Shown: positions 1,595 through 58,390 of the stretch, piece after piece
Position numbering within the stretch: the first letter of the stretch is position 1
How the letters are laid out: every line of letters begins with the position of its first letter
Assembly (NCBI GenBank): GCA_043745805.1
Contig: JAYTSD010000001.1
Span: forward strand, 1 to 64,000
From: Fibrobacteria bacterium
Lineage (GTDB): Bacteria > Fibrobacterota > Fibrobacteria > UBA11236
Reading direction: 5' to 3'
DNA length: 64,000 nucleotides
The notes under the pieces: model-generated
What the model saw: the letters and a program-made list of their open reading frames with translations, nothing else
Told to the model about the DNA's origin: nothing
The model's database searches: none
Position numbers and translations under genes: made by a program

Positions 1595-4210
1595 ATGACA
1601 AGAATAAGAGTAACCGAAATTGAATTAGAAGCCGGCATATCCTTACCTTCTTCTGGTGGGCATTATACCATTGTGCTTAAAAGCGATAAGCCTTTAACCC
1701 GCGTGCGTATGGCGGGAATGTTTTTCGATACCAATAAATGTTTTTTATTACCGCAAGCGATGCATGGCATTAAAGAAATTGCGCAACAATACGATTTACA
1801 TCCTGATAGTAATATGTTGATTGTCGGTCATACGGATACTGCGGGTGAGGATGAATCGAATATGACTTTGTCGCTCGAGCGAGCAGAGTCGATGGCGGCT
1901 TTTTTGCAAGACAAAAGCGAAGTATGGGAAGCCTTTTTTCAAGACTCAAACCCCGAAGCAAAGCGTTGGGGTACACATGAAATTCAACTTATGCTTTCGG
2001 CTTTACCTGAAAACGAAGAGCATAAATTTTTAAGTAGCAAGGACATTAGTGGCAAATTTGACGATAAGACAAAAATAGCTGTTAAAGCTTTTCAACATGC
2101 CCACACTATTGCAGACAATGGTGAAGTCGATTCCAAAACTCGCAAAACTTTAATTCAAGCCTATATGGGACTTGATGGAACTTCTTTACCGCATAGTAAT
2201 GATAATGCTATTAAAATTACTACTCATGGTTGCGGGGAAAATTTCCCGAAAGTTAAAACCGGAGATGGCGTGGATAAGGCGGAAAATCGTCGCGTGGAAA
2301 TTTTCTTTTTTGACGGAGAGATTAGGCCTGCACCGGAAGCGAATAAAAAATCGCTCAAGGGATCGAAACCGTATTTGTTCTGGAATGATCAAGTAACAGA
2401 AAATGTGGATTTGGTAGTGGAAAAAGAAATCGTTCAACCCAAAGCTGACATTCCTCCTGAAATCTGGACGGCGTCTAGTTTTGCACGCCAAACTTCTGGT
2501 AATAAGGTGGAGGCCTTGGTTGATGGTGCCGAGGCTATGAAAGCAATTCACACGGCTTTGCTCGGAGCGAAGAACTCTATTCGCATAGCCGATTGGACTA
2601 TGGCAACTCAAGCTCCTTGGAACGAAATCCTCGACAAAGATCCTAACAAAATCCCTGACCTCTCTTTGGTCCGCGATGGTTCGGGTGGCCTTATTACTGG
2701 CCTTTTCGCGACTTTATTGCAATGCGCAAATGCCGGTGTGATCATCAAAATCTTACTTTGGAATCCGAAACATTTCGATTCTGCAGGTAATCATGGGGAG
2801 TCTATACAGAAAAAACTAGAAGGTCTCCATGCGAATATTAAGGTGTCTTTACATGATCCTGGAAGTTACTGGTCTCATCATCAAAAATTTGTGATTGTCG
2901 ATGGCAAGGTGGCTTTTCTTGGCGGAGTTGATTTAGCAGCAGGCCGATGGGACACTCCTGACCATTCCGTGGTCGCGGATAAAAGATGGAGTAGCACGGA
3001 ATTTTATAACCCCTGTTTGGAAAGCACGGGCAATGCTTCGAATAGTCCTCGTATGCCTTGGCATGATGTGCATCTCCGCATCGAAGGCCCCTCAGTGGCG
3101 GATGTAGATGCAATTTTTGCAGGCCGCTGGAACTTTCAAAATAAATATGATACGGTCACTTCCATAGCACCTGCTAAACCGATTCCTGACGCCACCGATT
3201 GGGTACAAATTCATCGCTCGGCAAACTCTGCCTCATGTGGGTTGCCGAAAACCGAACATTCCATTTTAGATATGTATTTGAATTTGATTAAATTATCTCA
3301 GCATCATATTCATATCGAAAATCAATTTTTCACTTCGCATTTTGGAACTTCAACTGTCGAAAATACTATTGCAGATGCCTTGGTAAAACGAATCGGTTTA
3401 GCCATCAAAAATAGTGAGGACTTCCGAGTTACTATTGTGTTGCCTGCGCACCCCGAAGGCCCGCTGAGTTCTTGGGATACACAAGAGACTATGCATTGGC
3501 AATATCAGACATTGATTCGCTCGGGAGCAGGATCCTTCCTCGAGCGTATTCGAGCATTGATTGGCCCTACCGCGAACGCGGAAGATGTTAGAAAAGTAGT
3601 TTCGATTCATTGCTTGCGTAATTATGGTAACCTTGCTGGAAAAGGATGGATTACAGAACAAATTTATGTGCATATCAAATGCATGATAGTAGACGATTCC
3701 TGGGTGGTAATTGGCTCAGCAAATATTAATGATCGCAGTATGTTGGGTAATAGAGATTCTGAAATCGCTGGACTCATAGCGGACGAGAATGAGGTAGATT
3801 CTTTCATGAAAGAAAAGCCTTTTAAAGCACGTGCCTTTGCCAGAAAATTGCGTGTAAAGCTTTGGAAAGAGCATTTAAATATTGACGAATTGGATCTCAA
3901 AGATCCATTCACCGCACAATGGAACAAAATTTCCGGTGATAACACAATAATTTACGAGAGTGTATTTCCCAAAATTCCACGTAACAGTGCACACACGTTA
4001 CCTAATTTTAATGCTCTTAAGGAATTCGATTCCGCACAGGCCTCTAAATTATCCGGAATTAAAGGACATCTTTGTGACTTCCCCTTACAATTTTTGGACA
4101 AAGAAGATCTGGAAGCTAGCGATCCACGGCACCCTGATAAAATGTACACTCTCATACTTCGGCCAAAAGGACGGTTTGGCGAAGTTCCTGTAGCAGAAGA
4201 ATCCGTATGA
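1595..4210 (+). CDS. OmpA-like/peptidoglycan-binding domain fused to phospholipase D (eukaryotic PLD/PldA-like)
   Basis: OmpA motifs IVGHTD..G...N..LS..RA and G.GE..P...NRRVEI split by a PGBD-like insert; two HKD motifs HHQKFVIVD and HIKCMIVD plus PRMPWHD, HIENQFF, GSANINDRS. Confidence 0.85.
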   Translation: MTRIRVTEIELEAGISLPSSGGHYTIVLKSDKPLTRVRMAGMFFDTNKCFLLPQAMHGIKEIAQQYDLHPDSNMLIVGHTDTAGEDESNMTLSLERAESMAAFLQDKSEVWEAFFQDSNPEAKRWGTHEIQLMLSALPENEEHKFLSSKDISGKFDDKTKIAVKAFQHAHTIADNGEVDSKTRKTLIQAYMGLDGTSLPHSNDNAIKITTHGCGENFPKVKTGDGVDKAENRRVEIFFFDGEIRPAPEANKKSLKGSKPYLFWNDQVTENVDLVVEKEIVQPKADIPPEIWTASSFARQTSGNKVEALVDGAEAMKAIHTALLGAKNSIRIADWTMATQAPWNEILDKDPNKIPDLSLVRDGSGGLITGLFATLLQCANAGVIIKILLWNPKHFDSAGNHGESIQKKLEGLHANIKVSLHDPGSYWSHHQKFVIVDGKVAFLGGVDLAAGRWDTPDHSVVADKRWSSTEFYNPCLESTGNASNSPRMPWHDVHLRIEGPSVADVDAIFAGRWNFQNKYDTVTSIAPAKPIPDATDWVQIHRSANSASCGLPKTEHSILDMYLNLIKLSQHHIHIENQFFTSHFGTSTVENTIADALVKRIGLAIKNSEDFRVTIVLPAHPEGPLSSWDTQETMHWQYQTLIRSGAGSFLERIRALIGPTANAEDVRKVVSIHCLRNYGNLAGKGWITEQIYVHIKCMIVDDSWVVIGSANINDRSMLGNRDSEIAGLIADENEVDSFMKEKPFKARAFARKLRVKLWKEHLNIDELDLKDPFTAQWNKISGDNTIIYESVFPKIPRNSAHTLPNFNALKEFDSAQASKLSGIKGHLCDFPLQFLDKEDLEASDPRHPDKMYTLILRPKGRFGEVPVAEESV

Positions 4211-9676: not shown

Positions 9677-11353
<1,677 letters not shown>

Positions 11354-34056: not shown

Positions 34057-34515
34057 TTAGCGAAGACGTAAAGTGTCGGGACCAGATGATTTTTCGAAAT
34101 GGCAAAGGCATGTATTCGTGCTTAATTGAAAAATGCTTTCATAAGGCTTGTCTTTATAATTTATATGCACATTTAGACTTGCACTGGTTCCATCTATTTT
34201 TCGCACTAAAGAATCATTAAAAATTTGATAACGTCCGACACTATAGCCAGTTGTATCCACCAAATCTAAAGGCGTTTGTGCTTGATTCAAATAAAGTTTA
34301 ACGGTGGCTGAGGTAATCGGATGTTCATCGGTATCAACTAGGTATAAATTAAGTATCCGATAGCCCTTACATTTTGGGCAGTCAGTAGACTCCACATGAA
34401 ATTCACAGGCCCAAAAAAGGCTTCCAAAAACGAGAAAAGAAAGTATTCCGAATAAAATTTTGTTACGCATTTGGGTTAAAGTAACAAAAAAGGAGCTTGA
34501 TATCACTTGTTTCAA
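34057..34515 (-). CDS. Hypothetical Cys-containing lipoprotein
   Basis: LFWAC lipobox; real start probably MRNK. Confidence 0.55.
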   Translation of the reverse strand: MKQVISSSFFVTLTQMRNKILFGILSFLVFGSLFWACEFHVESTDCPKCKGYRILNLYLVDTDEHPITSATVKLYLNQAQTPLDLVDTTGYSVGRYQIFNDSLVRKIDGTSASLNVHINYKDKPYESIFQLSTNTCLCHFEKSSGPDTLRLR

Positions 34516-34588: not shown

Positions 34589-37500
34589 ATGGGACTATTG
34601 AATTTTTTAAAACCAGCATGGAAGCATAGCAATCCCTCGATACGGGCCGCAGCGATTCAAGGTTTGGCCGAGGATCAGCAAGATATTTTGCTTTCCATAG
34701 CCTTACAAGATAGCGATGTAAATAATCGCAAAGCCGCCTCCAAAAAAATTACTGAAAAAAGTCAATTACAGTCGTTGCTTGCAAAATCGGATGACACTGT
34801 TTTAAAAGAAATAGCCTCCAAAAAAATAAGTGAGCTCTTGACGAGTGCCGCTAAAAATGAATGCAAGAGTGATAGTGATTTACAACAAGCTAAAGAAGCA
34901 TTATCACAAATTACCGAACAAAAATGGTTAGAAGATATTGCGCAATTCGCAAAGTCGGTAGAAATTCGTAAACAAGCCTATTCCAAACTCACGCATGCCA
35001 GCGCCTTTTTTGCTTTAGCCCAAAATGAAGAAAATGCAGATTTAGCCTTAGTCGCCTTTGCCAAGGTAACACGTGTAAATCAATTGGAAAGCTTGAGCAA
35101 AAATGCGAAGAGCGCAATTATACGCAAAGCCGCCAAAGAAAAAATTAAAGATTTAGAAAAGGCGCAAGCCGCCGAAAAGAAAGATGCCATCAACTTAGCC
35201 AAGTTAAATGTACTCATGCAAACTGTAGAAAATATTCGGCAGGTTTTTGAAAAAAATGCATTGATTGATAATTGGAAATCCAGTTTAGAACAATTAGAGG
35301 ATGCCGAAAAAAGTTTACAGCAATTTTTACAAATGGGTTTAGCGCCCACTCCTGAGCAGGCTGCAAGCTTTCGCATCAGTCGGGATTTTATTCGTAATCG
35401 TATGGATAATCACGCAGCGGATTTAATGGCCAAGCAACTGAAACAATTACGTCATCAGGAAATTTTGGTGGAACGCAAAGAGATTTGTAATGCGCTCGAA
35501 GGTTTGGTCAGCGAGGATAGTTTAAATAGCGAAGCCTTATCCGAACTAAAAACCAAATGGCGGGAATTAGGCACTATTGATGGCCCTCAAGAAGAAGAGA
35601 TACAAGCAACATACCGTAACCTCTGTGATAATTTACAAAAAGCCGAATGGCGTCGCCAAAAAACTAAAGAAGAGGCTCTTCGTCGCGTAGAAGAAGATCG
35701 TCAACAAAAAGAACAAGCCATTGTTGAAGCGGAAAAAGTAGAAGGTTATAAACTCAATCAAAGCAAACTCGAAGCTTTGATTGTGCAAGTTGAAGCCACT
35801 TTAGAATTGCATGATATGCGTGAAATGGAAAAGGTTTTTAAAGAGCTTTCCCATACTTGGAAAAATACGGGGCCAGCTCCCGAAGCCGTGCAAACAGGTT
35901 TATTAGATCGTTTCCGTGCGGCACAAGAGCGCTATCGCGAAATTCAAGATTGGTTACGTTGGTCAAACTTGCGTAGTAAGCAAGAAGTATGTGATAAATT
36001 AGAAGCCTTATTAAAAAGTGAAATCGATAAAGGCGTGGTACAAGAATTTAAAGCTCTTTTGGCGGATTGGAAAAGCTTCGGTCCGGTGCCTTGGGATAGT
36101 TCGGAAGCTTTATGGGAACGCTATCATCAAGTTTGCGACAGCTTATATGAAAAAACCCGTGGTTATTTTGCTGAACTCGAAGAAGAACGCGAAGGTAATT
36201 TAAAAAGCAAAGAAGAGCTTTGTGCTAAGGTGGAAGCTTTGGCAGAGTCTACCGAATGGCGTGAAGCCATGGATACGGTTAAAGAAGCGCAAAGTAATTG
36301 GAAAGCGATTGGCGCCGTTCCTCGCGAACAATCCGAAGCTTTATGGACGCGCTTTAAAACGGCATGTGACTTATTCTATGGTCGTCGCGAAAAATATTTT
36401 GGCGAGAGCTTGGTCGCAAAAGTGGCTTTATGCGAGCTAGTAGAATCCTTACAAGATTCTACCGCTTGGAAAATCACTGGGCAAAAAATTAAAGAAGCCC
36501 AAGAACAATGGAAAACTTTAGGTCCTGTAGCCCGTAAAGATTCCGAAACGATTTGGAATCGCTTTCATACGGCTTGCGATAAATTTTATCAAGCGCGCCA
36601 TACTTTCATGGAACAATTGGATAGCGAAAGACCTTTCAATTTAGCGAAGAAAGAAGAGCTTTGCCGCTTAGTGGAAACCATCGATGAATTAGCTACGGAT
36701 GAGGAACGCTATAATTGCATACGCGAAGCGCAAGTGGCTTGGAAAGAAATTGGACCGGTTACTAAAGAGCAGGAACAACCTTTATGGGAACGCTTCCGCA
36801 AACCCTGCGACGCTTTTTTTGAATCGCGTAAAGCCAAATTCTCCGAAGATCAAAGTGCTCGCGAAGAGAATCAAAAATTAAAAGAAGAACTTTGTGTGGA
36901 AGCCGAAAGCTTGATGAATAGTCAAGACTGGAAGAACACTATTGAAAAATATAAAGTGCTGCAAGAAAAATGGAAAGCCATTGGCCAAGCCCCACGCGAA
37001 ATCGACAATGTTTTATGGAAACGTTACCGAACAGCTTGCGATGGTTTCTTTACGAAATTAAAAGCCAATTCGGCACTGATGGAAAAAGAACGCCAATTCA
37101 ATTTGAAGAAAAAAGAAGATTTGTGTTTTGAAGTAGAAGCGATGCTGCATCGTGAATTAACTCCTGAAGAAGCCAAGCGTCGTATGGATTGGCAATTGGA
37201 AAAGCTTTCCAAAAACTTTGGTTATTTCCAAGCCAAAGACGGTCCTATTGATTGGAAAGCCAGTTTTGAAAATGTGAAGGCCATACAAAAAGATTGGAAA
37301 AAAATAGGTCATGTTCCACGCGATAAGAGCGATGCTATTTGGGATAGATTTCACAAAGCCTGCGATGATTTTTTTGAAGAACGTCGCAAAGCCTTGGGAC
37401 TTCCCGAAAGTGATCCTGCCATTAATTTAGAACGTAAATTAGAGATTATTACCGAGGCAGAATCCATTGCCAATGCTGAAAAATCCGAAGAAGGACAAAA

Positions 37501-37642
37501 GCGTATGCGTGACTTACAAAGAAATTGGAAACGTATTGGGCCCGTGCCTCAAGCGCAAAATGAATTTGTGTGGAAACGTTTCCGTACCGCCTGTGATACG
37601 GTATTAGGTGCGGTATCTCAAGTGGAAAATGCAACGGCTTAA
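34589..37642 (+). CDS. DUF349 repeat protein with N-terminal HEAT-like region
   Basis: Repeated W..IGPV......LW.RF..ACD.F units. Confidence 0.85.
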   Translation: MGLLNFLKPAWKHSNPSIRAAAIQGLAEDQQDILLSIALQDSDVNNRKAASKKITEKSQLQSLLAKSDDTVLKEIASKKISELLTSAAKNECKSDSDLQQAKEALSQITEQKWLEDIAQFAKSVEIRKQAYSKLTHASAFFALAQNEENADLALVAFAKVTRVNQLESLSKNAKSAIIRKAAKEKIKDLEKAQAAEKKDAINLAKLNVLMQTVENIRQVFEKNALIDNWKSSLEQLEDAEKSLQQFLQMGLAPTPEQAASFRISRDFIRNRMDNHAADLMAKQLKQLRHQEILVERKEICNALEGLVSEDSLNSEALSELKTKWRELGTIDGPQEEEIQATYRNLCDNLQKAEWRRQKTKEEALRRVEEDRQQKEQAIVEAEKVEGYKLNQSKLEALIVQVEATLELHDMREMEKVFKELSHTWKNTGPAPEAVQTGLLDRFRAAQERYREIQDWLRWSNLRSKQEVCDKLEALLKSEIDKGVVQEFKALLADWKSFGPVPWDSSEALWERYHQVCDSLYEKTRGYFAELEEEREGNLKSKEELCAKVEALAESTEWREAMDTVKEAQSNWKAIGAVPREQSEALWTRFKTACDLFYGRREKYFGESLVAKVALCELVESLQDSTAWKITGQKIKEAQEQWKTLGPVARKDSETIWNRFHTACDKFYQARHTFMEQLDSERPFNLAKKEELCRLVETIDELATDEERYNCIREAQVAWKEIGPVTKEQEQPLWERFRKPCDAFFESRKAKFSEDQSAREENQKLKEELCVEAESLMNSQDWKNTIEKYKVLQEKWKAIGQAPREIDNVLWKRYRTACDGFFTKLKANSALMEKERQFNLKKKEDLCFEVEAMLHRELTPEEAKRRMDWQLEKLSKNFGYFQAKDGPIDWKASFENVKAIQKDWKKIGHVPRDKSDAIWDRFHKACDDFFEERRKALGLPESDPAINLERKLEIITEAESIANAEKSEEGQKRMRDLQRNWKRIGPVPQAQNEFVWKRFRTACDTVLGAVSQVENATA

Positions 37643-37666
37643 AAGCGAGTGCAAGTTTATAGTGAG
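37514..37666 (+). repeat. DUF349 3'-end repeat, copy 1
   Basis: Matches 41764-41917; 37549-37616 identical to 41799-41866 (68 bp). Confidence 0.95.
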
Positions 37667-37688
37667 CATTTTCTTACTATAAACTTTT
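37653..37688 (+). terminator. Terminator hairpin after DUF349 gene
   Basis: AAGTTTATAGTGAG...CTTACTATAAACTT. Confidence 0.6.
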
Positions 37689-37715
37689 GGTTTTCTATTC
37701 CGCTTTTAAAATAAT

Positions 37716-38573
37716 TTAAAACCGTTTAGAAATAATTAATGCGGCCCCATTAATACCGTCGCGTCCATAAATCGGATTTAATTTTAATGCGGCTAATTTT
37801 TGAGAATTATTTTTTGAAAAAAGGTGTGAAGTTAATTCATAAAACCCCGCATTTGCTAAAGGAAGAATTATTGAAGCAATAGTAAGTTCGAGTTGAAGGT
37901 TACTCATAATTTCGCTGGGTGTCGCATCTGGAGAGCTGGATGCACTTGCAGAAAATGGTGCTGAGGCCACAATTCCACCATAATAGGTTGCAGACAATGA
38001 ACCTTTACCTCCCATCAAGTTTCCTACACTATAAACTGCAAGGGGAGATACAATAAATTCAGCTCCTAGACCCAACATGCCTGCGCCAAAACAGTCTCCG
38101 CCACCACAAGTAGCTGAATATGTTCCCCATGCGGCAAGCCCTCCAACGATGTCTCCCGCCAAAGATTCAAGGAAAAATCGCGTTACCGAAAATGAAGAAC
38201 GATTATCTGCTTTGGATTTTTGAATCGGATTAGTCGGTGTAACAGCGGAAACGGAAGAATTAATATTTTGTTTGGGTTCAATCTGCTGAGATTGAGTAGG
38301 CCGTTTCTTTTGATTTGCTTCCACTAAAGGTTGTGCTAATACCTCTTCGGATATAATCTTTTCCACCAAATCCATTTTATAAACGAAAGTATTTCCATCA
38401 CTGGTTTGGATTTTTAAACTTTGGCCTAATTCTTCTTCTAAGATATTGCATTTGATAATACTTCCATTCTTTAAATAAACAATCTGCTTGCCTTCTGTTT
38501 GAGTTAAAAGAAAAAGTAAGCCTAAGAGGAAGGCAAAATTTATTTTATGGTACGCTAGCATGCTAAACATCAA
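37716..38573 (-). CDS. Secreted protein: conserved VYLKNGSII N-domain plus Gly-rich hydrophobic C-domain
   Basis: Signal peptide; N-domain paralogous to 38623..39576. Confidence 0.6.
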   Translation of the reverse strand: MMFSMLAYHKINFAFLLGLLFLLTQTEGKQIVYLKNGSIIKCNILEEELGQSLKIQTSDGNTFVYKMDLVEKIISEEVLAQPLVEANQKKRPTQSQQIEPKQNINSSVSAVTPTNPIQKSKADNRSSFSVTRFFLESLAGDIVGGLAAWGTYSATCGGGDCFGAGMLGLGAEFIVSPLAVYSVGNLMGGKGSLSATYYGGIVASAPFSASASSSPDATPSEIMSNLQLELTIASIILPLANAGFYELTSHLFSKNNSQKLAALKLNPIYGRDGINGAALIISKRF

Positions 38574-38622
38574 TGACTCCGATACGGATTAAGTTATAAG
38601 TGAGTATTCGGTTTATTTTATT

Positions 38623-39576
38623 TTAAAATCCGACCCCGGTTTGAATCGCAAATCTAGGAGAAACAAATTCAATAGAAAAGGACTGTGATTCCGTGGAGGT
38701 CTTTATTGAATTTTTAATATTAATACGAGAAACACTATAGCTTCCCTCAAGACTCAGTTTAATGGACTTCCTTGGGATAGAAAAAATCAATCCACCGCCC
38801 GTACCCCAAAAAAAACCTCCCGCTGAAGTTATAGTTTGCCCTACTTCAGTAGCATTTACTCCAGTATTAGGTCCCGGAAAAAAAAGGTCATAACCTAAAT
38901 TAATTAAGAGAAATGGAAAAAATCCACGTAATAATTCTGTGGATAGTCTTGCTGAACCAAAAAGGGGTAAGATGTTGCCTAAATCATCTAGATCGTCAGA
39001 ATCTGGATGCTCAAATTTTATTGTTGTGAAATAACTTGCACCCAAACCTAATGCTAAATGGGAGATAACAGGCGCCTCCACAGACGCCTGAATGGAAAAA
39101 TTTTTATCTAGGTTAGCTTTGCCCTTATAATTCCTAAGGGTATCACCACAGGTTGAGCAAGTATAATCGACATAAGTACCATTTACTGTGCTCGTCATTG
39201 CAGCAGGAAAGTTGTACCCCGCTTTGATATAATAGGTAAAAAGCCGCTTTGAATTTTTGGGTGCCTCTTCGGTCGCTGGCGTTGCTACCAAAGTAGTAGT
39301 ATTACTAATAGGTGGGTTAATTTGAATTGGAGCTAATACTGGTTGTTCTTCTTCAAATAATATTTTTTTCACCATGTCCATTTTATAGACAAAAAGACTT
39401 CCATCACTGCTTTGGATTTTCAAACTTTGATTTGGAATTTGTTCAAGTATCACACCTTTAATGATGCTTCCGTCTTTTAAGTAAACGACCTCCTTACTTT
39501 CTGCGGAATTCATAAGGAAAAATAACCCCAAAAGGAAACATATTTTTTTAGGGTTAAATATTATGTTTGACATCAT
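38623..39576 (-). CDS. Secreted protein: conserved VYLKDGSII N-domain plus outer-membrane beta-barrel
   Basis: Signal peptide; amphipathic strands ending GVGF. Confidence 0.65.
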   Translation of the reverse strand: MMSNIIFNPKKICFLLGLFFLMNSAESKEVVYLKDGSIIKGVILEQIPNQSLKIQSSDGSLFVYKMDMVKKILFEEEQPVLAPIQINPPISNTTTLVATPATEEAPKNSKRLFTYYIKAGYNFPAAMTSTVNGTYVDYTCSTCGDTLRNYKGKANLDKNFSIQASVEAPVISHLALGLGASYFTTIKFEHPDSDDLDDLGNILPLFGSARLSTELLRGFFPFLLINLGYDLFFPGPNTGVNATEVGQTITSAGGFFWGTGGGLIFSIPRKSIKLSLEGSYSVSRINIKNSIKTSTESQSFSIEFVSPRFAIQTGVGF

Positions 39577-39661
39577 TGACTCCGATTGGGATTAAGTTAA
39601 AAGTTAATTAATTGATATTATTAAATACACTATTTGGTTATTGTAAGGAAACTCGGTTATG

Positions 39662-40011
39662 TTAGATGCAAAAACCATCATAGGTAATTGTAGGCGTGTC
39701 TAAACCTTGGATACATCTATTAAGTGGACTCTTAGTAATGGGATTTTTCTTTCCCATGCAATCCGAATCCTTGTAACAGCTAAATCCACACGTATAACGG
39801 CCCGCTCCTAAATGCAGGGCTTCAGTACCGCAAAAACATTTATTTGTTATTGGCGCCCGGCATATCCGACATCAGTGCATGTTGGTGCCGTAGCAATTGG
39901 TTTAGTTGGAGTTTTTGTGGTGGCTTCTTCAACAGGTCCACTGGATTCACAACTTATACTTAATAGCATATAAGCAAGTATAAGTGTCCTAGCTATTTGA
40001 ATACTAAGCAT
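39662..40011 (-). pseudogene. Frameshifted Cys-rich lipoprotein (absent from ORF track)
   Basis: RBS plus MLSIQIARTLILAYMLLSISC lipobox ORF stops at 39847; a Cys-rich continuation (NKCFCG...TCGFSCYKDSDC...RCIQG) runs in another frame. Confidence 0.55.
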
Positions 40012-40074
40012 TTAATTTCCTATTTTTTAAATGGATTAATTGAAAGATAGTGGTATTCGTGGGTAACCTTTTTT

Positions 40075-41367
40075 CTACTTACCACAGGGGAGTATGGATT
40101 TTGTGAATGTGAAACCGATACCAACATTCACACTGACAATGTCTGACTTTAAGATATTACCGTCTAGCCACCATTGCCCAAAAAGAGGTGTTGGGCGATT
40201 GTTAATAGTTGTACTGCATTGGAAGTTAAAGCAGGTATAACTATTTGATGACGTTATGTATCGGATAAAACCATCGGAATCCAGTTCATAAATTGTTGTA
40301 TAATCAGAATGACTACCCGACTCAGCATCAATATTTTCGACCTTCTTATAATTACCTGCCACATTGCACTCAGCTGTAGTCATGGTTTTAGAGTAGGGAC
40401 AGTTTAAGATGTGGCTGCCCCACGAGTAATATCTGTCAAATGTAGAGCGTGTAAAGACACGACAACTTGCCCCGAATGCGATCTTGAGATTAAAAGATTG
40501 TGCGATTCCAGAAGTCGGGATCAGCTTTAGTGATTCACCATGAACCTCCCAAGTGCCTTTGACAGACCAGTTTTTGTACCTCATCTCTTCATAGGTATAT
40601 AACGGTGGGCCATTAAATAAAATCCCTGTTTCATCATTTGCATTCTTAAAATTATTTACTGTACTGTAATCACTTGTATATTGTTTTGAGACTAGCCAAG
40701 ATGGATGAGTAACAACCACAGGCAATGCCATAAGGACTATGTCACCCAAATTTTGATTTAAATCAGAAGTAATACCAACTTTTTTGGTAATGAATCCAAG
40801 TTTTGAGAAAGTTAATGAGTCAGCGTAAATAACAGTACTCTTTTTTAAGTCTTTAAATAAATCGGTAGAAAGAATATCACGATCTTGATCTATTTCAGGT
40901 TTAGAAACTGCAAGCCTATGAATCATAGATTGTGATCCCCAAATTATTTTTACAAAATAAATTCCTTGAGCATTTTTTTTCATTAAACTTGGAATGGAGA
41001 GAGAGTATTGCCCGAGTTCCATGTTTCGATTGAAAATTGTTTCCAGTTTGACGCCACTGATAGTATAAAGATCAATGCGAAGTGATTCCTTTGAAAATGC
41101 TTTAAATTGCAGGGTGTTTCCATATATTTTTATTTCAGAATGCTTTTCAGGGTTGTTTTTTAGGAAGCTTGGAACCGTTATAAAAGAAAAAGTACCCAAT
41201 ATTGAGGTAGTAGTAGAAACATTTTGGGATTGAACCTTAACTGTTACTCCTGCAATTGGACTTAATAGGGTATCGACTAAACGCCCCGATAATTCACCGC
41301 TATCGGACATGGCGACTCCAATTGTTATTAGTATAAAGTGCGCAATAAATTTTAATTTGACTGGCAT
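40075..41367 (-). CDS. Secreted protein: carboxypeptidase-regulatory-like domain with CTD-like insert and lipocalin-like C-terminal domains
   Basis: Signal peptide; LSGRLVD...PIAGVTV; LYTISG.KL...GIYFV; AAGGGG RBS favours ATG 41367. Confidence 0.55.
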   Translation of the reverse strand: MPVKLKFIAHFILITIGVAMSDSGELSGRLVDTLLSPIAGVTVKVQSQNVSTTTSILGTFSFITVPSFLKNNPEKHSEIKIYGNTLQFKAFSKESLRIDLYTISGVKLETIFNRNMELGQYSLSIPSLMKKNAQGIYFVKIIWGSQSMIHRLAVSKPEIDQDRDILSTDLFKDLKKSTVIYADSLTFSKLGFITKKVGITSDLNQNLGDIVLMALPVVVTHPSWLVSKQYTSDYSTVNNFKNANDETGILFNGPPLYTYEEMRYKNWSVKGTWEVHGESLKLIPTSGIAQSFNLKIAFGASCRVFTRSTFDRYYSWGSHILNCPYSKTMTTAECNVAGNYKKVENIDAESGSHSDYTTIYELDSDGFIRYITSSNSYTCFNFQCSTTINNRPTPLFGQWWLDGNILKSDIVSVNVGIGFTFTKSILPCGK

Positions 41368-41436
41368 AATTAGTTTTCCCCTTGTACTCGTCAATCAAAA
41401 AAAATGACCGAGTTAAGAAAAAAACAATTTTTGCAA

Positions 41437-41485
41437 ATCTTGTAAACTGACATTTCGCTGACAAGCATTTTAGGGGAAGCAAAAG
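41437..41485 (-). promoter_or_regulatory. 49-bp upstream element, copy 1 (TGTCA-N6-TGTCA direct repeat)
   Basis: 48/49 identical to 45684-45732. Confidence 0.8.
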
Positions 41486-41497
41486 GAGAGGGAAGTA

Positions 41498-41775
41498 CTA
41501 ACGTTTTATAAACCTCATCGATTTATGAAAATCATCAGCTTTAAAATCCATTATATATGACCCTTTAGATAGCCCGTCCGACCGTAAAGAGTAATACCCT
41601 ACATCGCGCATTTCATCAATTAAGGTTCTAGCGAGTTTTCCGCGTATGTCAATTAACTTAGCGGTTACATACATTCTTTTGGCTAAACCAAATTGCAATA
41701 TGCCATCGCCATTTTTCCCCATAGTTTGCAGAAAAAATTCCTTGGGTAAAAGTGTGTGCGTATTTGCAAATGAAT
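41498..41775 (-). pseudogene. Orphan C-terminal sorting-domain-like remnant
   Basis: IDIRGKLARTL...GLSKGSYIM pattern typical of secreted-protein CTDs; frame runs upstream into the DUF349 copy with no signal peptide. Confidence 0.55.
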
Positions 41776-41917
41776 TGGAAATGTATTGGACCAGTGCTTC
41801 AAGCGCAAAATGAATTTGTGTGGAAACGTTTCCGTACCGCCTGTGATACGGTATTAGGTGCGGTATTTCAAGAAGAGAATTGTTTAACTTAAGTTAAAAA
41901 TCAAGTTTTATAGTTAG
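41764..41917 (+). repeat. DUF349 3'-end repeat, copy 2
   Basis: Encodes NWKCIGPVLQAQNEFVWKRFRTACDTVLGAVFQEENCLT* with the stop exactly 4250 bp after the gene's stop; left terminator arm partly retained. Confidence 0.95.
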
Positions 41918-41983
41918 TGTCGTGGAGTTCAATTAATTGTATTAAAGGGATGGTCCCCAAGATTGCGAATTCTACTTCTTTCA

Positions 41984-43189
41984 TCACGGATCCAAACCTA
42001 GGTCAACGTACTTGAAACCGTATTTTGGATCAGTCAAGTAAATCAAGGTGTCGAAGGACCAATAGCTTCCGGTGGTGATATTTTTGAAATAGACATTTGC
42101 ATTAGAGTAAGCGTGATACATTCCAAAATTGTACTGGACCGAATCGGCGGGAAGGCTCCAAGCCAGGGTTTGTTGGTCGGTAAGTCCGGAATCGAGAACG
42201 ATTTTATTCACGGGGGTGGCGGAACGATTTCGAGCCAGTAAAATAAAATAGCTTGAGTTGCTGATCAAGGTCGAGGAATACGTCGCCGGTTGCCCAAGCA
42301 CAATGGTGTCCTTCCAAGTGACAATATTTCCCGAGGCGGCGGCAGCGAAGATGAGGCGGGTTGGACGACTCTTCAGATCCAGCATAAAGCTATCTGCAGG
42401 GGAAATGGAGGGTACATAGGTGTTACTCCCCGCATAAACGGTGGTGGTGAGATAGGCACCGGTATGGTTAATGAGTTTGAAATGAAAACCTAGGTCATCT
42501 TCATCCAAAGTCTCTTCGCGTATGCCAGAAAGGATTAGCTGAGCCAATATCGAGTCGAGCTGATTGTGGACTTCGATTTTGAGATTCACTATTGCATGGG
42601 AATCCCCGTTATAATTATCCGTATGTGCGTCCAAAGCGGAATTACCTGCTATCCGAAACAGAGGAGCGCTGCCCCCGTCCAGCCATTGGGTTCGCCCCTG
42701 GACTTGGTAGAAATATTTCAAGGACACGGAGTCTTGGTCCAAATTCGTGTTCACATCTGTTCTCACATCGAATTTACCGTTGTACATGTCGCCGTCATGG
42801 TCCACTGTGTTGAGGATTTGAGCCGTCAATGTATACGTGGCGGGAATCTTGTTCTTTTGAATGTTAGTGGTGGCGCTTCCATTGTAATTCAGCACGATAT
42901 CATACACCAAGATATTTCCTTTGTATCCTTTGATCGAAAACGTGGTCGGACCTCCCGCATAACCTGGCGCAGCCAGATTCACCAGTTGTTGCAATGATTT
43001 CAGAGAGTCGTCAAACCAGGTTGTAGGATTACCTTGCGCGTCCAAATGTTGGATTTGTACTCGGTGCATAGAAAGCAAAACGGTGTCGACATTTAAGTTA
43101 ACGCGATTGGATTTGCTGTCGTTGATATTACATGCGCACAGAAGCCAAAATGCTAACCAAACCAAAAGGGACAGAAACATTTTTTTCAC
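41984..43189 (-). CDS. Surface lipoprotein, beta-rich
   Basis: GTG start overlapping the upstream stop with GGAG RBS; LLCAC lipobox. Confidence 0.6.
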   Translation of the reverse strand: MKKMFLSLLVWLAFWLLCACNINDSKSNRVNLNVDTVLLSMHRVQIQHLDAQGNPTTWFDDSLKSLQQLVNLAAPGYAGGPTTFSIKGYKGNILVYDIVLNYNGSATTNIQKNKIPATYTLTAQILNTVDHDGDMYNGKFDVRTDVNTNLDQDSVSLKYFYQVQGRTQWLDGGSAPLFRIAGNSALDAHTDNYNGDSHAIVNLKIEVHNQLDSILAQLILSGIREETLDEDDLGFHFKLINHTGAYLTTTVYAGSNTYVPSISPADSFMLDLKSRPTRLIFAAAASGNIVTWKDTIVLGQPATYSSTLISNSSYFILLARNRSATPVNKIVLDSGLTDQQTLAWSLPADSVQYNFGMYHAYSNANVYFKNITTGSYWSFDTLIYLTDPKYGFKYVDLGLDP

Positions 43190-43899
43190 GGGGTCACTCC
43201 CACTGTGGAACGTGCGTCGATGGTATAAATCTGCGAAGATGATTTTGGCTGCATCAAGAAATAGGTGGCAATGCCTGTACCGATTACCGCAGTGCCGACT
43301 GCGGTCCAAACGAGAATCTTGGTTGTGGATAGGTAGGGTGACTGGGCGATTTCTGCGGGCGGAATTTTAGCGGTGGAAGTCTGTACTGTGCTTGGGCGAA
43401 CGCCGTTGCGCGCATAGTATTCCTCTTTGACCTTGTCGAAAAGTCGATCTATCTCGTCGCTCACGTACATGTCGATGAGCTTTATGGCCGGCTCTAGATC
43501 CAACAGCCGGTACATGTAATACTTGCCTTTTTCCCGCGTCCCCGGAGCGGCCGAATACACGACAGCCAAATGCTTTGCGATGAATACGCTGTCCGCGTGT
43601 TGGTAAACCGGGTTGGCCTTGGTGAAGGCTTCAATGGCACTGATAACGCTTTCGAACTCACCATTGTTATAGGTATTGTGGATGCCTTTTTGATCAAGCG
43701 CACCGCTTGCGGGTTGAGCCCACACCGAGATACCCAATCCAATCAAAACCAGTAAGAATACGGAGAACAGGTTTTTTGAATCTTTCCGTCCACTTCCTTT
43801 CATTTCGTTGCATCGGACCTTGTTCACAGGTGTTGTCGATTTTTCTAATTGATTCATAATGGGATTTTTCTTCCACTTAGGTATTTCCACCATCATCAT
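43186..43899 (-). CDS. Secreted TPR-like protein with C-terminal TM helix
   Basis: YNNGEF...DSVFIAKHLAVVY...YRLLDLEP, similar pattern to 23215..23934; start uncertain. Confidence 0.6.
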   Translation of the reverse strand: MMMVEIPKWKKNPIMNQLEKSTTPVNKVRCNEMKGSGRKDSKNLFSVFLLVLIGLGISVWAQPASGALDQKGIHNTYNNGEFESVISAIEAFTKANPVYQHADSVFIAKHLAVVYSAAPGTREKGKYYMYRLLDLEPAIKLIDMYVSDEIDRLFDKVKEEYYARNGVRPSTVQTSTAKIPPAEIAQSPYLSTTKILVWTAVGTAVIGTGIATYFLMQPKSSSQIYTIDARSTVGVTP

Positions 43900-43955
43900 T
43901 TCTCCTTTTTCCTATATCGGAAAAGTGGAAGTCTCGGCTCAACTCTTGGATTTAT

Positions 43956-44717
43956 TTATTTAACTATCAAATATCCAGTACTGCTTTTGTCATCAACGAC
44001 AATACTGTCCTGACCATTTCCAGAAAATGTTCCAGCTCGGATTTCTTTTTTTAATGGGATCACAGAAATTGTCATGTGGACCCGACTTTTAAGAACAAAT
44101 TTATGGCCTATCGGAGGAGAAATTGCAAACCAGATGCTTGGTATTACTGCACCCAAAATTGAAAATACAGGGACATCCATTGACATAGCATCTATTACTC
44201 CTCCGCTACATATTGTCACAGCTGCAAAGATTAATTGCGTTGTTAGTTTTGAATTTTGCCAATACTTTTCTTTAGAATAATCTATTCCGCCCCAGTCTAC
44301 TGATACAAGCAGCCTTAGGTCTGGTGAAATGGTTGCATTGTTGTTATGTAGATTTTCAGATCGGGGAAATTGTTCGTCTAGGATAAGTTCACGAGAGACT
44401 GGGGACATTTCCACAAGTACGCCTTCTTCAGCTGCCTTCGCTTCTACTGCCCCAGCGATATAATCGAGTAAATCTTTATTGGAATGCGGGAAAACCCCAT
44501 TTATTTCTATCCTCGCTTTTTTCCCAGCGTAGTTACGAAATTCAATTTTTTTACATGTTTCGGAAATGGCTTGCCTCGCCGCGTTTGAAATAAGCTCCTG
44601 TTGTATCGGGAGTCTTGGTGAAATAATTTCCATTGAGGTAGGCATGAGCTGCTTGTTTGTTGCGCATGCAGAAAACATGATAAGTGTGATCGATAAAATG
44701 ATGAATAAATTTTTCAT
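43956..44717 (-). CDS. Hypothetical lipoprotein with hydrophobic hairpin
   Basis: FSAC lipobox. Confidence 0.6.
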   Translation of the reverse strand: MKNLFIILSITLIMFSACATNKQLMPTSMEIISPRLPIQQELISNAARQAISETCKKIEFRNYAGKKARIEINGVFPHSNKDLLDYIAGAVEAKAAEEGVLVEMSPVSRELILDEQFPRSENLHNNNATISPDLRLLVSVDWGGIDYSKEKYWQNSKLTTQLIFAAVTICSGGVIDAMSMDVPVFSILGAVIPSIWFAISPPIGHKFVLKSRVHMTISVIPLKKEIRAGTFSGNGQDSIVVDDKSSTGYLIVK

Positions 44718-44731
44718 TTGTATCCTATTTA

Positions 44732-45277
44732 TTAATTGTTATCGGACAAAAGACAAATTTCATTTTTGAGGAAAAGACGCCGCCTGCCATTCAAAAAATA
44801 ATTTGATTTTTTGAACATAATTTGAGAAAATCTATTTTCGACTGGGAGCGGTTTAATTGAAGTCACCAAACTCAATTGTTGAATTTCATTCGGCGTCGGT
44901 TTGAAGTTCCATGCACATAACCCAGTCCTTACGCCATTTGTGACCGAGGTGTTCCGTTGAGCGAATAAGATTAGGGTGTCGTCTTTAAAAAAATGGACAT
45001 CGCATGCACTCTCTTCTATCAACCCACCAGCTGTACCTGCATTTAAAATTGCAAGGCTTTTTACACCTAACGGCGTTTTGCTGAAATCCCTAATTATTTT
45101 GAATTCCGTTTGATCCCAATCTGTCCCCCTATGGAGGTCACCTACCACTCCATATACTGTGACATCGAATAGGTCGCGTCTTTCGAGCAAAGTAATTCCA
45201 TAATTTGTGCATTGGCAAGCCCCAGCGAGTTTAACAGCAAGGTACGTTGTTAAAGAAATCACAAAAATTAATTTCAT
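44732..45277 (-). CDS. Secreted TIMP/NTR-like protein
   Basis: Signal peptide ending AGA then CQC; later SAC..F and GLC. Confidence 0.5.
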   Translation of the reverse strand: MKLIFVISLTTYLAVKLAGACQCTNYGITLLERRDLFDVTVYGVVGDLHRGTDWDQTEFKIIRDFSKTPLGVKSLAILNAGTAGGLIEESACDVHFFKDDTLILFAQRNTSVTNGVRTGLCAWNFKPTPNEIQQLSLVTSIKPLPVENRFSQIMFKKSNYFLNGRRRLFLKNEICLLSDNN

Positions 45278-45348
45278 ATTTTTCCCTTTGATGGTGATTA
45301 AATTACTGATTAAAAATTTAAAGTATTTTCAGTTTTTGTTTAACAAAA

Positions 45349-45570
45349 TTAAAGACCGCATGGCGATAAAGATTTTTTAAAACTAAAGCCGCTTCCAATG
45401 TTTATAGAAACTACATCCGAGGTTAAAACACTCCCACTGAGCCACCATCCTCCGTATACAGGGACACTTTCGCCACTTAGGGCTTTGCACGATATTCCAT
45501 AACAAGTGTTTTGAGCTATGGAAATTTGTAAAGCAATCAAAATAATCGCAGAAGCCAATGCTGTTCTCAT
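45349..45570 (-). pseudogene. Internally deleted paralog of 40075..41367 (signal peptide fused to last ~50 aa)
   Basis: GGWWLSGSVLTSDVVSINIGSGFSFKKSLSPCG aligns with GQWWLDGNILKSDIVSVNVGIGFTFTKSILPCG. Confidence 0.7.
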
Positions 45571-45683
45571 AAATACTCTCCTGATACACAACAAGATTCG
45601 TCGCCAAAAAGAATGGCAAAAAGCGATTCTTTAGCGAACCCAATGATTCCAATATGTGTTTATGAAAGAAGCAATTCTTTTAC

Positions 45684-45732
45684 ATCTTGTAAGCTGACAT
45701 TTCGCTGACAAGCATTTTAGGGGAAGCAAAAG
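45684..45732 (-). promoter_or_regulatory. 49-bp upstream element, copy 2
   Basis: 48/49 identical to 41437-41485. Confidence 0.8.
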
Positions 45733-45820
45733 TCGGAAGAAGATCGTGTCGAAAGTCGAGCAATACCTTTCACAATCATTCGTTACAACAAGCACTTTGC
45801 GATTAATTCCCTTTTAAAAT

Positions 45821-45859
45821 GGTATTAGGTCGTTTCGAAAATGAAAATAGTTTGACTTC
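45821..45859 (+). repeat. DUF349 3'-end repeat, degenerate copy 3
   Basis: GGTATTAGGT then TTTCGAAAATGAAAATAGTTTGACTT; reads VLGRFENENSLT versus VLGAVFQEENCLT in copy 2. Confidence 0.5.
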
Positions 45860-47246
45860 AAAATATTTCTTGAAACTCCACCGGACAATTACTTTTAAAA
45901 CTAAACTCGCCGATTCCGGTTTTTTCTAAACGAACAAGACTTGTGGCTTCTGCAAGTTTATCCCGCAGACGATTCCAACGCGTTTCAAAACTGGAATTTT
46001 TCGTATTGGAAAAAATATCTTGATCATATTTGAAAGAGCGGAAATCAAAAGTTGTCTGACCTTTTTCATTTGCCAATAAAATTTTTCTCAGTATCTTTGC
46101 GGGTACCCCAGATATTAAGGTTTTACCATTGAGTAAAATAGCTTGCGCTTCGGAATGATATTCAAAAATTATTCGAAAAGCCACTTGTTCTAGGAGATGT
46201 AAATGGATACGTTCGACGGATTTCAAAACGCCAAGTTCCTCAGCAATCAAATCGTCCACTAATGAGTCGATTCGTCCATGGATTTTACCCGCCTTTTTCC
46301 ATCGAAACCCTTCGATATGTGTTGGTGCTTCATAACCGCAGGCAGGGAACAAAACAATGCGCTGTCGCAATGGACAGTAATACTCTTTTTCTATTACAAT
46401 TATTTCGCTATCAGGTACTTTTACTTTTTTAAGTTCAGGAAGCAAGAACGCGCAATGATCGTGGAGTCGCTTTTTGCGTCCAAAGGGTTTGCCTGCAATG
46501 AAAAAAATATCGCCGACCAAATGATGATCTACTTGCCAAAGTATTTCTTTAAGTTTGCGCATATCGGCTATAGGAAAGGATTCATCAATAGGAGTTCCTC
46601 CTAATGCGCGTGGATAGCGGCAAATAATTTGCGCACCAAATAAATGATAATCCGAAGGATAAAGCCCAGAAAATTTTTTATCCGGAATATATAAAACCCA
46701 GGCGGTTGTGAATCCTTGGTTTTTCTCTACGCGAATGGCCCTATTGATGCATCCAGGAATATAGCGTTCTGAAACCAAAGCCATAGCCTTGAAAAGGAAA
46801 TCACGGGGATCGGCAGCGCGTAAAAGTAAAGGCAAGGCAGGCTTTAACCAATGTAGTAGTAGTTTTCCAGGAATTACGGATCCTCGATTAACGCGAAGAC
46901 ACATTTTATCCACAATGCCAAGTATATTGGCTGATTTCCACACAGTAAATTGCTCCAAGCAATCCATAGTTGTTTGAACAAAATCCAGAGGAAATGTTCC
47001 ATTTTCTTGCCACAATCTTTGGTAAAGTTCTTCTTCTTTGATTCGCCCATCAGCACTGAGATCTGAAATACGAGCCTTCCAGAATTCTCTGACTGACTCT
47101 AAATCGAATTCTGTAAGCATTACTGAATAAAGTGCTTTTAAGTAGAGGTTGGATATATTCGGATTAAAAATAGCTGGTCGAGTTGGATCTTTGTAATCTG
47201 CAATTATTTTAGGTGAAATCGAAGTAAGAGAATCTAATACTGGCAT
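45858..47246 (-). CDS. Putative regulator with C-terminal OmpR-like winged helix
   Basis: LNG..LISGVPAKILRKIL...FETRWNRLRDKL...LEKTGIGEF; N-terminal region unassigned. Confidence 0.55.
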   Translation of the reverse strand: MPVLDSLTSISPKIIADYKDPTRPAIFNPNISNLYLKALYSVMLTEFDLESVREFWKARISDLSADGRIKEEELYQRLWQENGTFPLDFVQTTMDCLEQFTVWKSANILGIVDKMCLRVNRGSVIPGKLLLHWLKPALPLLLRAADPRDFLFKAMALVSERYIPGCINRAIRVEKNQGFTTAWVLYIPDKKFSGLYPSDYHLFGAQIICRYPRALGGTPIDESFPIADMRKLKEILWQVDHHLVGDIFFIAGKPFGRKKRLHDHCAFLLPELKKVKVPDSEIIVIEKEYYCPLRQRIVLFPACGYEAPTHIEGFRWKKAGKIHGRIDSLVDDLIAEELGVLKSVERIHLHLLEQVAFRIIFEYHSEAQAILLNGKTLISGVPAKILRKILLANEKGQTTFDFRSFKYDQDIFSNTKNSSFETRWNRLRDKLAEATSLVRLEKTGIGEFSFKSNCPVEFQEIF

Positions 47247-57166: not shown

Positions 57167-58390
57167 TTAATAGGGCCTCTTGACCACGCGCGTGACGTCT
57201 TCAAAATCTTTACGCAATGGATGGCCTACAAAATGATCTTCTAAAAATAGGCGACGTAAATCGGGGTGCCCTTTAAAACGAATGCCAAAAAAATCATAGA
57301 CTTCGCGTTCATGCCAATTAGCCGTTTTGTAAATAAAAGCTAAGGTGTCAATTTCCGGGTGCAAGTTATGCGGTAAGCTGCAACGCACAAAAATTTTGTG
57401 CCCATGATCAATGGATAATAAATGCACCACCACATCAAAATGATCTTTCCAATCTATGGCGGTGAGCTCAAACAAAAAATCCATGCGTAAAGCATTGTGG
57501 TTTTTTAAAAAATTAATAAAAGGAATATATTGTTCGGAAGCAACCTGCAAATCTAAAACTTTATCCGTATTAATTTCGGCTAATTTTCCATCGCTGACTT
57601 CGTCCATGCCATATACTTTAAGGTCGGGAAATTTTTCCTTCGCAAGATTATACATATCGGTTGGACTTAAGCCAATAGGTGGAGGTAACACCCTTGGTAC
57701 TTCTTCAAATTTGGGAGGAACAATGCGCTTGGCAATAAAGCCTTTAAATTCAGGATTTTCTAATTTGAATTTTTCCTGCGCTTCTTTTAAACCTTCTTGT
57801 TTAATTTTTTCGGCAGCGTCCCAAGCCTCGGCACTTTTACTGTGTAAGTCGCTAATCGGTTCATGATAGAGTGGGCGTGGTGTAAGTGGACGACGCAAGC
57901 TGCCGGTTTTAATCAAAGCTTGCAATTGCATAATGCCATATAATAAAGCTTCGGGACGTGGAGGACAGCCGGGAATATATACATCCACAGGAATTAATCG
58001 ATCCGCCCCTTTGACTACGGAATAACTATCATAATAAAAAGGACCGCCCGAAATGGTGCAAGCTCCCATGGCAATCACATATTTTGGTCCAGGCATTTGC
58101 TCGTATAAAGTGGTCAAACGCGATCCCATTTTTTCGACTATGGTTCCGGCGAGTACAATTAGATCGGCTTGCCTTGGAGTGGCGCGAGCTACTTCTAAAC
58201 CAAAGCGTGCCCAATCATTGTCGGAAGCGCCAGTGGCCATCATTTCAATGGCGCAGCAAGAAGTGCCGAATACCAATGGCCATAAGGAATTGGCGCGAGC
58301 CCAATTCACTACATAATCAACAGCATTGACCAATTTATCGCCGCCGGGCAAAGGGTCCAGTAGGCCAGGTAACTCCTCCATTACTCCCAT
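57167..58390 (-). CDS. nuoBC: Fused NADH-quinone oxidoreductase subunits B/C
   Basis: SCCAIEM and PGCPPRPE (NuoB); ANWHERE.YD and GHPLRKDF (NuoC). Confidence 0.93.

Follow-up and report, generated by a model that had tools for sequence, protein, structure and literature searches.

Integrons carry an intI integrase, with attI and Pc, next to their cassette array, and clusters of attC sites lacking integron-integrases (CALINs) are integrase-free attC arrays; in both, cassettes mostly hold single promoterless genes, with an attC site at the cassette end. Circular DNA can also enter a chromosome by a single, Campbell-type crossover, which leaves hybrid direct repeats around the insert, identical to one another at the crossover segment, and which is reversible. 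Here we analyze a 64-kb stretch of chromosomal DNA (the window) from an uncultivated Fibrobacterota-type bacterium, in which a stack of genes for predicted exported proteins lies between the 3′ end of a gene encoding DUF349 domains and a convergent gene for a winged helix-turn-helix (wHTH)-like protein. The end of the DUF349 gene (repeat T) recurs within the stack. We suggest that the DUF349-wHTH interval is a chromosomal gene-gain hotspot whose latest addition, a 4,250-bp unit, was acquired via a single crossover in the T core, a reading to which we give about an even chance of being correct.

The stack shares with integrons and CALINs an additive array of genes in a single orientation without an adjacent recombinase. 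Unlike these, it has no attC and no intI; its units are multi-gene and have their own upstream element, and the repeat is a piece of a neighboring gene. As in Campbell-type integration, direct hybrid repeats surround the insert and are identical at the crossover segment, although here just ~150 nt are homologous, of which 68 nt in a row are identical, and a circle and a donor have to be supposed.

Elements without an integrase can accumulate in tandem at an att site that takes in the 3′ end of a gene; this has been documented for cis-mobilizable elements (CIMEs) and elements of the ICESt1/ICESt3 type, as set out in an excerpt of PMC5704250. CIMEs as portrayed there resemble our locus in lacking an integrase, in having flanking direct repeats with the end of a protein-coding gene, and in the internal repeat copy between two stacked blocks beside an intact target gene (PMC5704250, same excerpt). 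CIME tandem accretion is the nearest documented kind of process. The locus differs from CIMEs in that no cognate integrative and conjugative element (ICE), integrative and mobilizable element (IME) or integrase was seen in the 64-kb window, and in that the far end of the unit is an illegitimate joint of gene fragments. It also differs in that homology extends past the crossover core on the side where it is not needed, and in that the blocks are very small (4.25 kb) and carry exported-protein genes only. In homology-facilitated illegitimate recombination (HFIR), one end is homologous and the other is illegitimate, with few shared bases (PMC3240628, in part). The part of that source cited here describes foreign genes brought in beside a conserved anchor gene, as at the DUF349 locus; HFIR, however, normally replaces recipient DNA without duplicating the anchor, and the identical core seen here would need a later conversion. 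Duplication of a gene end flanking an integrase-free islet is already known as a kind, and the DUF349 locus is a further instance.

The DUF349 gene end and its displaced copy

Four features define the repeated gene end.

34589 to 37642, plus strand: DUF349 gene, 1017 aa with seven DUF349 domains (Pfam PF03993, E 8e-132)
37497 to 37666, plus strand: T1, the functional DUF349 tail with stop and left arm of the terminator; core at 37549-37616
37653 to 37686, plus strand: intrinsic-terminator hairpin of DUF349 followed by a T run (13 bp, -20.9 kcal/mol, z -3.8, 0 of 200 shuffles as good)
41748 to 41917, plus strand: T2, the displaced DUF349 pseudo-tail; core at 41799-41866

The initial annotation, made from the sequence alone, had reported that the DUF349 tail recurs 4250 bp further on, with a 68-bp identical core, diverged flanks, the stop in register and half of the terminator. 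Repeat search, blastn and folding bear this out. The repeat search matched 37514-37630 of T1 with 41764-41880 of T2 (91% over 117 nt, spacing 4250), and gapped blastn aligned 37497-37666 with 41748-41917 (81%, 171 columns, E 2e-38). Within these limits, 37549-37616 and 41799-41866 are identical at 68 of 68 positions. The flanks have ~32 mismatches in ~101 positions and the core none in 68 (Fisher p 8e-9, from approximate counts), flank identity being ~78% on the left and ~58% on the right as far as the stop. The repeats are thus hybrid and identical at the presumed crossover segment, and they take in the 3′ end of the target gene while the DUF349 ORF (open reading frame) is whole. The TAA stops, at 37640-42 and 41890-92, are in the same register, and the last eight codons read SQVENATA in T1 and FQEENCLT in T2. 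In the whole 64 kb, the only repeated 31-mers are those of the T core and of the core of a second repeat, U, described below; no further T or U locus was found within the window.

A protein search with DUF349 gave 819 matches (best 58% identity); the orthologues, no more than 58% identical, all come from Fibrobacterota-type metagenome-assembled genomes (MAGs) or metagenomes. The T1 residues WKRIGPVPQAQ match the orthologue consensus. T2 reads WKCIGPVLQAQ, with K to C and P to L changes at conserved positions, where T1 and the 40 orthologue tails inspected are WK/RRIGPVPRAQ-like. The left flank of T2 also has a 1-nt deletion relative to T1, which is a frameshift. Because T2 has this deletion and non-consensus residues where T1 fits the orthologues, it is a decaying pseudo-tail and not a second live gene. 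It retains only the left arm of the terminator, with no significant fold. Homology of T2 to DUF349 continues leftward from the core for 51 nt, into sequence that selection for a restored gene would not maintain.

Within the T core lies a perfect 12-nt palindrome, GGAAACGTTTCC, at 37572-37583 (= 41822-41833), spanning the codons W-K-R-F. It may be a chance result of codon choice. We found no relevant work linking DUF349 with a genomic island among the publications retrieved, judged by title or abstract.

A head-to-head joint of gene ends

The sequence between A439, the lead gene of block A, and T2 has the following features; the second copy of U is given for comparison.

41413 to 41485, no strand assigned: U1, conserved element upstream of the lead gene A439
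45660 to 45732, no strand assigned: U2, second copy of the upstream element
41498 to 41752, minus strand: orphan, 5′-truncated remnant of a type IX secretion system (T9SS) type-A sorting domain (74-aa ORF at 41498-41722 plus ten further homologous codons)
41748 to 41752, no strand: illegitimate joint at which the C-terminal domain (CTD) remnant on the minus strand meets the DUF349 tail T2 on the plus strand, both 5′-truncated, with an overlap of at most 5 nt

The 74-aa ORF was searched against 1.84 billion representative proteins and gave 109 matches, including itself. In 87 of the 109, the best match ends no more than 12 aa from the C-terminus, and the proteins range from 65 to >2600 aa. TIGR04183 was found at the aligned place in two of 15 scanned homologues; the ORF itself matches this model at E 0.014, which falls short of the cut-off (15.4 bits against 23). 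A tblastn search with eight homologues as queries traced CTD homology over 41510-41752, ten codons past the ATG, where it stops. By these comparisons the ORF between U1 and T2 is no gene of its own.

Two gene 3′ ends on opposite strands meet head to head within 5 nt at 41748-41752, and we therefore regard the joint as illegitimate. The closure point of a circle, or a tandem junction, would look like this, and the joint is in keeping with an intermediate, circular or tandem, with a truncated DUF349 tail on it. Since the end of the latest unit is an illegitimate joint and not a dedicated site, at least this unit appears to be of accidental origin. The meeting of the CTD remnant with T2 was not part of the initial annotation and is new here. 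Sequence to the right of U1 is unrelated to that on the right of U2 (score 9, with 761 of 1000 shuffles as good).

Upstream elements and cargo of the two blocks

Direct repeats of the DUF349 tail stand on either side of block A (37617-41798), and block B lies between T2 and the wHTH-like gene; the interval between the convergent DUF349 and wHTH-like genes measures 8.2 kb. Each unit consists of 3 to 5 genes and a conserved U. For two of the genes we give the G+C content at third codon positions (GC3).

37716 to 38573, minus strand: A285, predicted exported protein with a hydrophobic N-terminus and a weak NF047433 match below cut-off
38623 to 39576, minus strand: A317, predicted exported protein, paralogue of A285
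39662 to 40011, minus strand: probable frameshifted small lipoprotein gene (54-aa ORF with LLSISC and, after it in another frame, a Cys-rich ORF)
40075 to 41394, minus strand: A439, the lead gene of block A, with a signal peptide, a CarboxypepD_reg-like region and an internal T9SS-CTD-like domain
41984 to 43309, minus strand: B441, lipoprotein-like, probable start MFLSLL.. at 43180, GC3 0.54, weak NF038116 match below cut-off
43186 to 43899, minus strand: B237, predicted exported protein with a C-terminal hydrophobic segment, GC3 0.58
43956 to 44717, minus strand: B253, lipoprotein with an FSAC lipobox
44732 to 45277, minus strand: B181, exported protein or lipoprotein, AGAC
45349 to 45594, minus strand: B81, the short lead gene of block B, with a signal peptide and a 52-aa domain in common with the A439 C-terminus

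A 49-bp element common to both blocks had been proposed initially, and we recovered it as U, with 89% identity over 73 nt at a spacing of 4247. Its core is identical at 47 of 48 nt (one mismatch) and includes a 39-nt exact repeat. The core pattern has two matches in the window, a number reached in none of 100 shuffles. Also present in the U core (41447-41465 and 45694-45712) is CTGACAT-TTCG-CTGACAA, two 7-nt direct repeats with an 11-nt period, an architecture that we take to be that of OmpR/PhoB-type binding sites.

The interval contains eight full-length ORFs, all encoded on the minus strand, and a crude hydropathy scan (not a trained predictor) gives each of them a hydrophobic stretch at the N-terminus. 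To the extent that such a scan allows, this agrees with the earlier statement that all genes are on the minus strand and that nearly all encode exported proteins or lipoproteins. Lipobox-like cysteines were identified in B253 and B181 by the scan and in B441 (LLCAC) by eye. The N-terminal domains of A285 and A317 are 52% identical over 91 aa. A 498-nt gap in block A (39577-40074) contains the minus-strand ORFs 39847-40011 and 39662-39871, the 54-aa product of the former existing as a called protein.

The two blocks were said to share a paralogous lead gene. This holds only for the C-terminal 52 aa common to A439 and B81 (residues 387-438 versus 30-80, 46% identity, E 1e-16). Residues 92-161 of A439 form the T9SS-CTD-like domain, which is matched by its own profile at E 1.9e-7 and by TIGR04183 at E 4e-4, below cut-off. 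This domain is followed by ~278 aa, of which the last 52 resemble B81. A439 seems from this arrangement to be a small secreted protein fused to a downstream ORF; its only match among 5.8 billion proteins is itself. B81 exists as a called protein in a 73-aa form. No other pair of proteins from the two blocks matches below E 0.05, and besides T and U nothing else is common to the blocks at the DNA or protein level. A candidate hidden collinear homology of blocks A and B, in DNA or protein, was rejected by sequence comparison.

B441 and B237 have GC3 values of 0.54-0.58, as against 0.26-0.43 in the other 53 ORFs of the window. The corresponding high-GC patch, at ~42100-43750, lies directly beside T2; its right edge, near 43900-43955, has neither a T copy nor another repeat. 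On compositional grounds the patch is a recently acquired segment. Since the B441/B237 patch is compositionally foreign, block B is itself composite. From T to U, block A measures 3898 nt and block B 3895 nt, with unrelated cargo.

Proposed origin of the latest unit

The donor DNA would have held a DUF349 tail, block A with A285, A317 and A439, U1, and the truncated CTD end, closed at the illegitimate joint. One Campbell-type crossover between the donor and the chromosomal DUF349 tail, within the identical 68 nt, would have rebuilt DUF349 with a donor-derived terminator and last eight codons. It would have left the hybrid pseudo-tail T2 between the new block A and the older block B. The donor would most likely be a circularized piece of the homologous variable locus of a related strain, because the unit also includes a U element and the C-terminal domain of its lead gene recurs in B81. 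Recombination may have been the work of host functions (RecA-type) or of an enzyme whose gene lies outside the unit, which encodes none; host homologous recombination should suffice for 68 identical bases within ~150 nt of homology. Further recombination between T cores, or between U cores, could delete either block again. Block B would be older and composite, and may have entered in the same way, leaving a relic, T3. The initial annotation had invoked successive crossover insertions, each restoring the gene. One such insertion is well supported by the identical core, the diverged flanks and the stop in register; the earlier one is only plausible.

A putative third tail and the wHTH-like gene

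At its far end the stack meets the wHTH-like gene.

45821 to 45858, plus strand: T3, putative remains of a third DUF349 tail, directly next to the wHTH-like stop codon and nearer to the right flank of T2 than to that of T1
45858 to 47246, minus strand: gene for the 462-aa wHTH-like protein, no family match; C-terminal ~100 aa in common with proteins of other phyla

Positions 41850-41890 of T2 align with 45821-45858 at a score of 16 (T2 against 45733-45900). Of 1000 dinucleotide shuffles, 6 scored as high, as did 11 of 1492 genomic windows; with the internally repetitive DUF349 gene excluded, the windows numbered 5 of 1422. When the test was restricted to 45800-45860 and the final 60 nt of T2, none of 2000 shuffles did as well, compared with 9 of 2000 for the T1 tail. 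The last 15 nt of T3 share 12 positions with T2 and 8 with T1 (counted by hand). The best alignment of T1 to this region is in another register, 37674-37732 against 45783-45840, with 1 of 1000 shuffles as good. T3 is without most of the T core. The degenerate third copy proposed initially thus fares well against shuffled sequence in the restricted test, although it is short, most of the core is missing, and T1 offers a rival register; homology of T3 is probable from these alignments but not secure. As a relic, T3 would allow for an earlier insertion, and for the DUF349 and wHTH-like genes having once been adjacent.

The 462-aa protein has no Pfam or NCBIfam match even at E<=10 and no sequence match in the PDB. 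Its AlphaFold model has a mean pLDDT of 68.8, and a Foldseek search with the model gave no match at E<=0.001; the only fold matches to OmpR-family DNA-binding domains (4b09_B, 4u88_B) and to H-NOX domains are weak ones. The original winged-helix label is plausible in view of the OmpR-type fold matches, but it is not established, as there is no family match. Four relatives were found among 5.8 billion proteins, at no more than 35% identity, one of them named Fibrobacteria. The protein searches with the wHTH-like protein, DUF349 and A439 thus recovered no relative at strain level.

A profile search of genome contigs was carried out with a five-sequence alignment of the wHTH-like protein, and 13 window proteins were compared by tblastn with all loci found. 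The search recovered 41 loci, nine of which have full-length homologues (24-34% identity). In these nine there is no DUF349, cargo gene, phosphoesterase or nuoN within 10 kb. Across the 41 loci only the wHTH-like protein itself was matched by tblastn, and the neighbors at loci L002 and L007 are unrelated to the window. Synteny is not conserved at this distance, which neither supports nor refutes a former adjacency of DUF349 and the wHTH-like gene. Three loci from Fibrobacter-type MAGs have two paralogous wHTH-like genes that lie head to head and are transcribed divergently.

Locus L003, 82-1416 (minus strand) and 2025-3317 (plus strand): divergent pair
Locus L004, 8270-9562 (minus strand) and 10001-11302 (plus strand): divergent pair
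Locus L005, 8233-9525 (minus strand) and 10001-11293 (plus strand): divergent pair

Mobile-element searches and flanking genes

As stated initially, the locus has no recombinase: Pfam revealed no recombinase, integrase or transposase domain among the 56 ORFs of the window (13 + 43 ORFs), and no intI integrase is among them. There is also no tRNA gene in the 64 kb. Profile scans identified no integration or transfer genes in block A or B. Neither block has a plasmid match by blastn. The region 37497-45400 has no phage match by blastn, and 11 proteins gave 0 PHROG matches. Ten inverted-repeat pairs were detected in a search for attC-like repeats at 34-50 kb, none of them at a cassette boundary. 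Rfam gave no RNA family in the interval at E<=1 except a weak rimP match inside A317 (whether Rfam includes an attC model was not checked), and no known RNA in T or U. The integron-like array envisaged at the outset is not upheld: attC-like repeats and a recombinase are both absent from the regions searched, and the cassette end is an illegitimate joint in place of a dedicated site.

The interval is flanked by core genes identified with Pfam: miaB-like and DUF349 genes on the left, and a metallophosphoesterase gene and an 11-gene nuo operon on the right. Divergent from DUF349 is a gene for a 152-aa lipoprotein-like product (34057-34515, minus strand). Its resemblance to the A439 N-terminus is weak (27% over 79 aa, E 0.19); because of it, exported-protein genes may be said to occur on both sides of DUF349. 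In the nuo operon, a single 407-aa ORF (57167-58390, minus strand) has both the 20-kDa (NuoB) and the 30-kDa (NuoC) domains and is an apparent NuoB-NuoC fusion. NuoE, NuoF and NuoG domains were not seen in the 64-kb window.

Discussion

A structure of this kind could arise in the assembly itself, if two strain alleles, or a chromosome and a 4.25-kb circle, had been threaded together through exact repeats of 68 and 39 nt. The contig belongs to an assembly of metagenome type, and a k=31 graph would indeed be ambiguous, as A-then-B, B-then-A and a chromosome with a circle all use the same unitigs. However, a k-mer assembler would not create the joint between the CTD remnant and T2, which shares at most 5 nt, and T2 is frameshifted and degenerate and not the tail of a live allele. 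These two points exclude a misjoin of strain alleles. From the repeated 31-mers, a k=31 assembly should yield block A as a unitig of 3890 nt (37587-41476) and block B as one of 3887 nt (41837-45723). In a second public source, which we take to have been assembled at k=31, the contigs with A439 and B237 measure 3890 and 3887 nt, respectively. The matching contigs confirm the two blocks and, to the base, the two repeat boundaries. Ordinary reads are longer than 68 nt, so that they normally settle which flanks pair across such a repeat, and this also counts against an artefact. Overall, we consider an assembly artefact very improbable.

Two other explanations would make the locus more regular, or more local in origin, than the single crossover that we prefer. 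If T were an att-like site at the DUF349 3′ end, a site-specific recombinase encoded in trans could have added promoter-bearing units of exported-protein genes in tandem, in the manner of CIME-type accretion, of Xer-dependent modules or of the integron-like array first proposed. Two certain copies and one probable copy of T, all in the same orientation and each at the DUF349-proximal end of a block, are in keeping with such dedicated cassettes. So are the palindrome GGAAACGTTTCC within the identical core, the like layout of the blocks with a conserved U at the far end, the nearly equal unit lengths of 4250 and 4247 nt, and the T2 stop kept in register. Integrase-less tandem accretion at an att site in a gene 3′ end also has a precedent (PMC5704250, excerpt cited above). 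The far end of unit A, on the other hand, is an illegitimate joint of gene fragments without a defined site, and T2 has 51 nt of homology to the left of the core that an attP would not need. There is no recombinase within 64 kb, the boundaries have no arm-type or inverted repeats, T3 is without most of the core, and the window has no second T or U locus. Dedicated cassettes are for these reasons unlikely, with some weight left to them. A local tandem duplication of a ~4.25-kb unit running from the DUF349 tail to U, with later turnover of the cargo and gene conversion that kept the T and U cores alike, would predict two independent repeat pairs near the same period, as found at 4250 and 4247. 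It would also account for the sharp left boundary of T2, as expected at a duplication joint, and is in line with weaker collinear similarities (the lead-gene C-termini, 40081-40174 versus 45355-45448, and 39556-39640 versus 45263-45342, E 0.02). Against it, the cargo is unrelated and the units share only T, U and the 52-aa lead-gene end, gene boundaries do not match at the 4250-nt offset, and the CTD remnant to the right of U1 is unrelated to what follows U2, so that the joint is no simple end-to-start junction. That cargo was replaced while its length was kept within 3 nt would be a further coincidence, and B441 and B237 are compositionally foreign. Plain tandem duplication was rejected outright, given the unrelated cargo and the unrelated sequences after U1 and U2 (761 of 1000 shuffles as good); the version with cargo turnover is in our view decidedly unlikely.

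Several observations weigh against the single crossover in T. The T core and the near-identity of the U core (48 nt, one mismatch), with the same block layout, hint at more regularity than an accident would give. A crossover in T also implies that the DUF349 tail before the insertion, now the right flank of T2, had no recognizable terminator. The agreement between the T-to-U distances would occur about once in a thousand if lengths were free over a few kb, and near-equal block lengths are predicted neither by the single-crossover account nor by that of the initial annotation. The matching contigs of the second source leave the order of the blocks across the repeats unconfirmed. A crossover in U could give the same map, with a 4247-nt insert of T2 and block B. 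Homology-facilitated illegitimate recombination followed by conversion of the core could give the same structure as well (PMC3240628, in the part cited above).

A bolder version of the hotspot would be an integrase-free stacking locus, in which ~4.25-kb, promoter-bearing units of surface genes, with a DUF349 tail at one end and U at the other, are gained and lost by crossovers in the cores. A size-constrained vehicle or circular intermediate would then explain the lengths of 4250 and 4247 nt, and U, with its direct repeats of 11-nt period, would perhaps be read by the wHTH-like protein, placing the units in one regulon. We regard this as improbable and offer it as speculation. The layout, the matching lengths and the two patches of near-identity also keep a trans-mobilized cassette process alive as a rival, if an unlikely one.

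For annotation, the 74-aa ORF and T2 are best treated as scars, not genes. If the latest unit did arrive by a single crossover in the T core, the locus would be a clean, datable example of the 3′ end of a core gene serving as a landing pad for surface-protein genes. Such stacking would require no element-encoded recombinase, in a phylum whose gene flux is hardly described. Were the bolder reading true, these bacteria would possess a regular cassette system of size-matched units with a common operator, and this would matter more.

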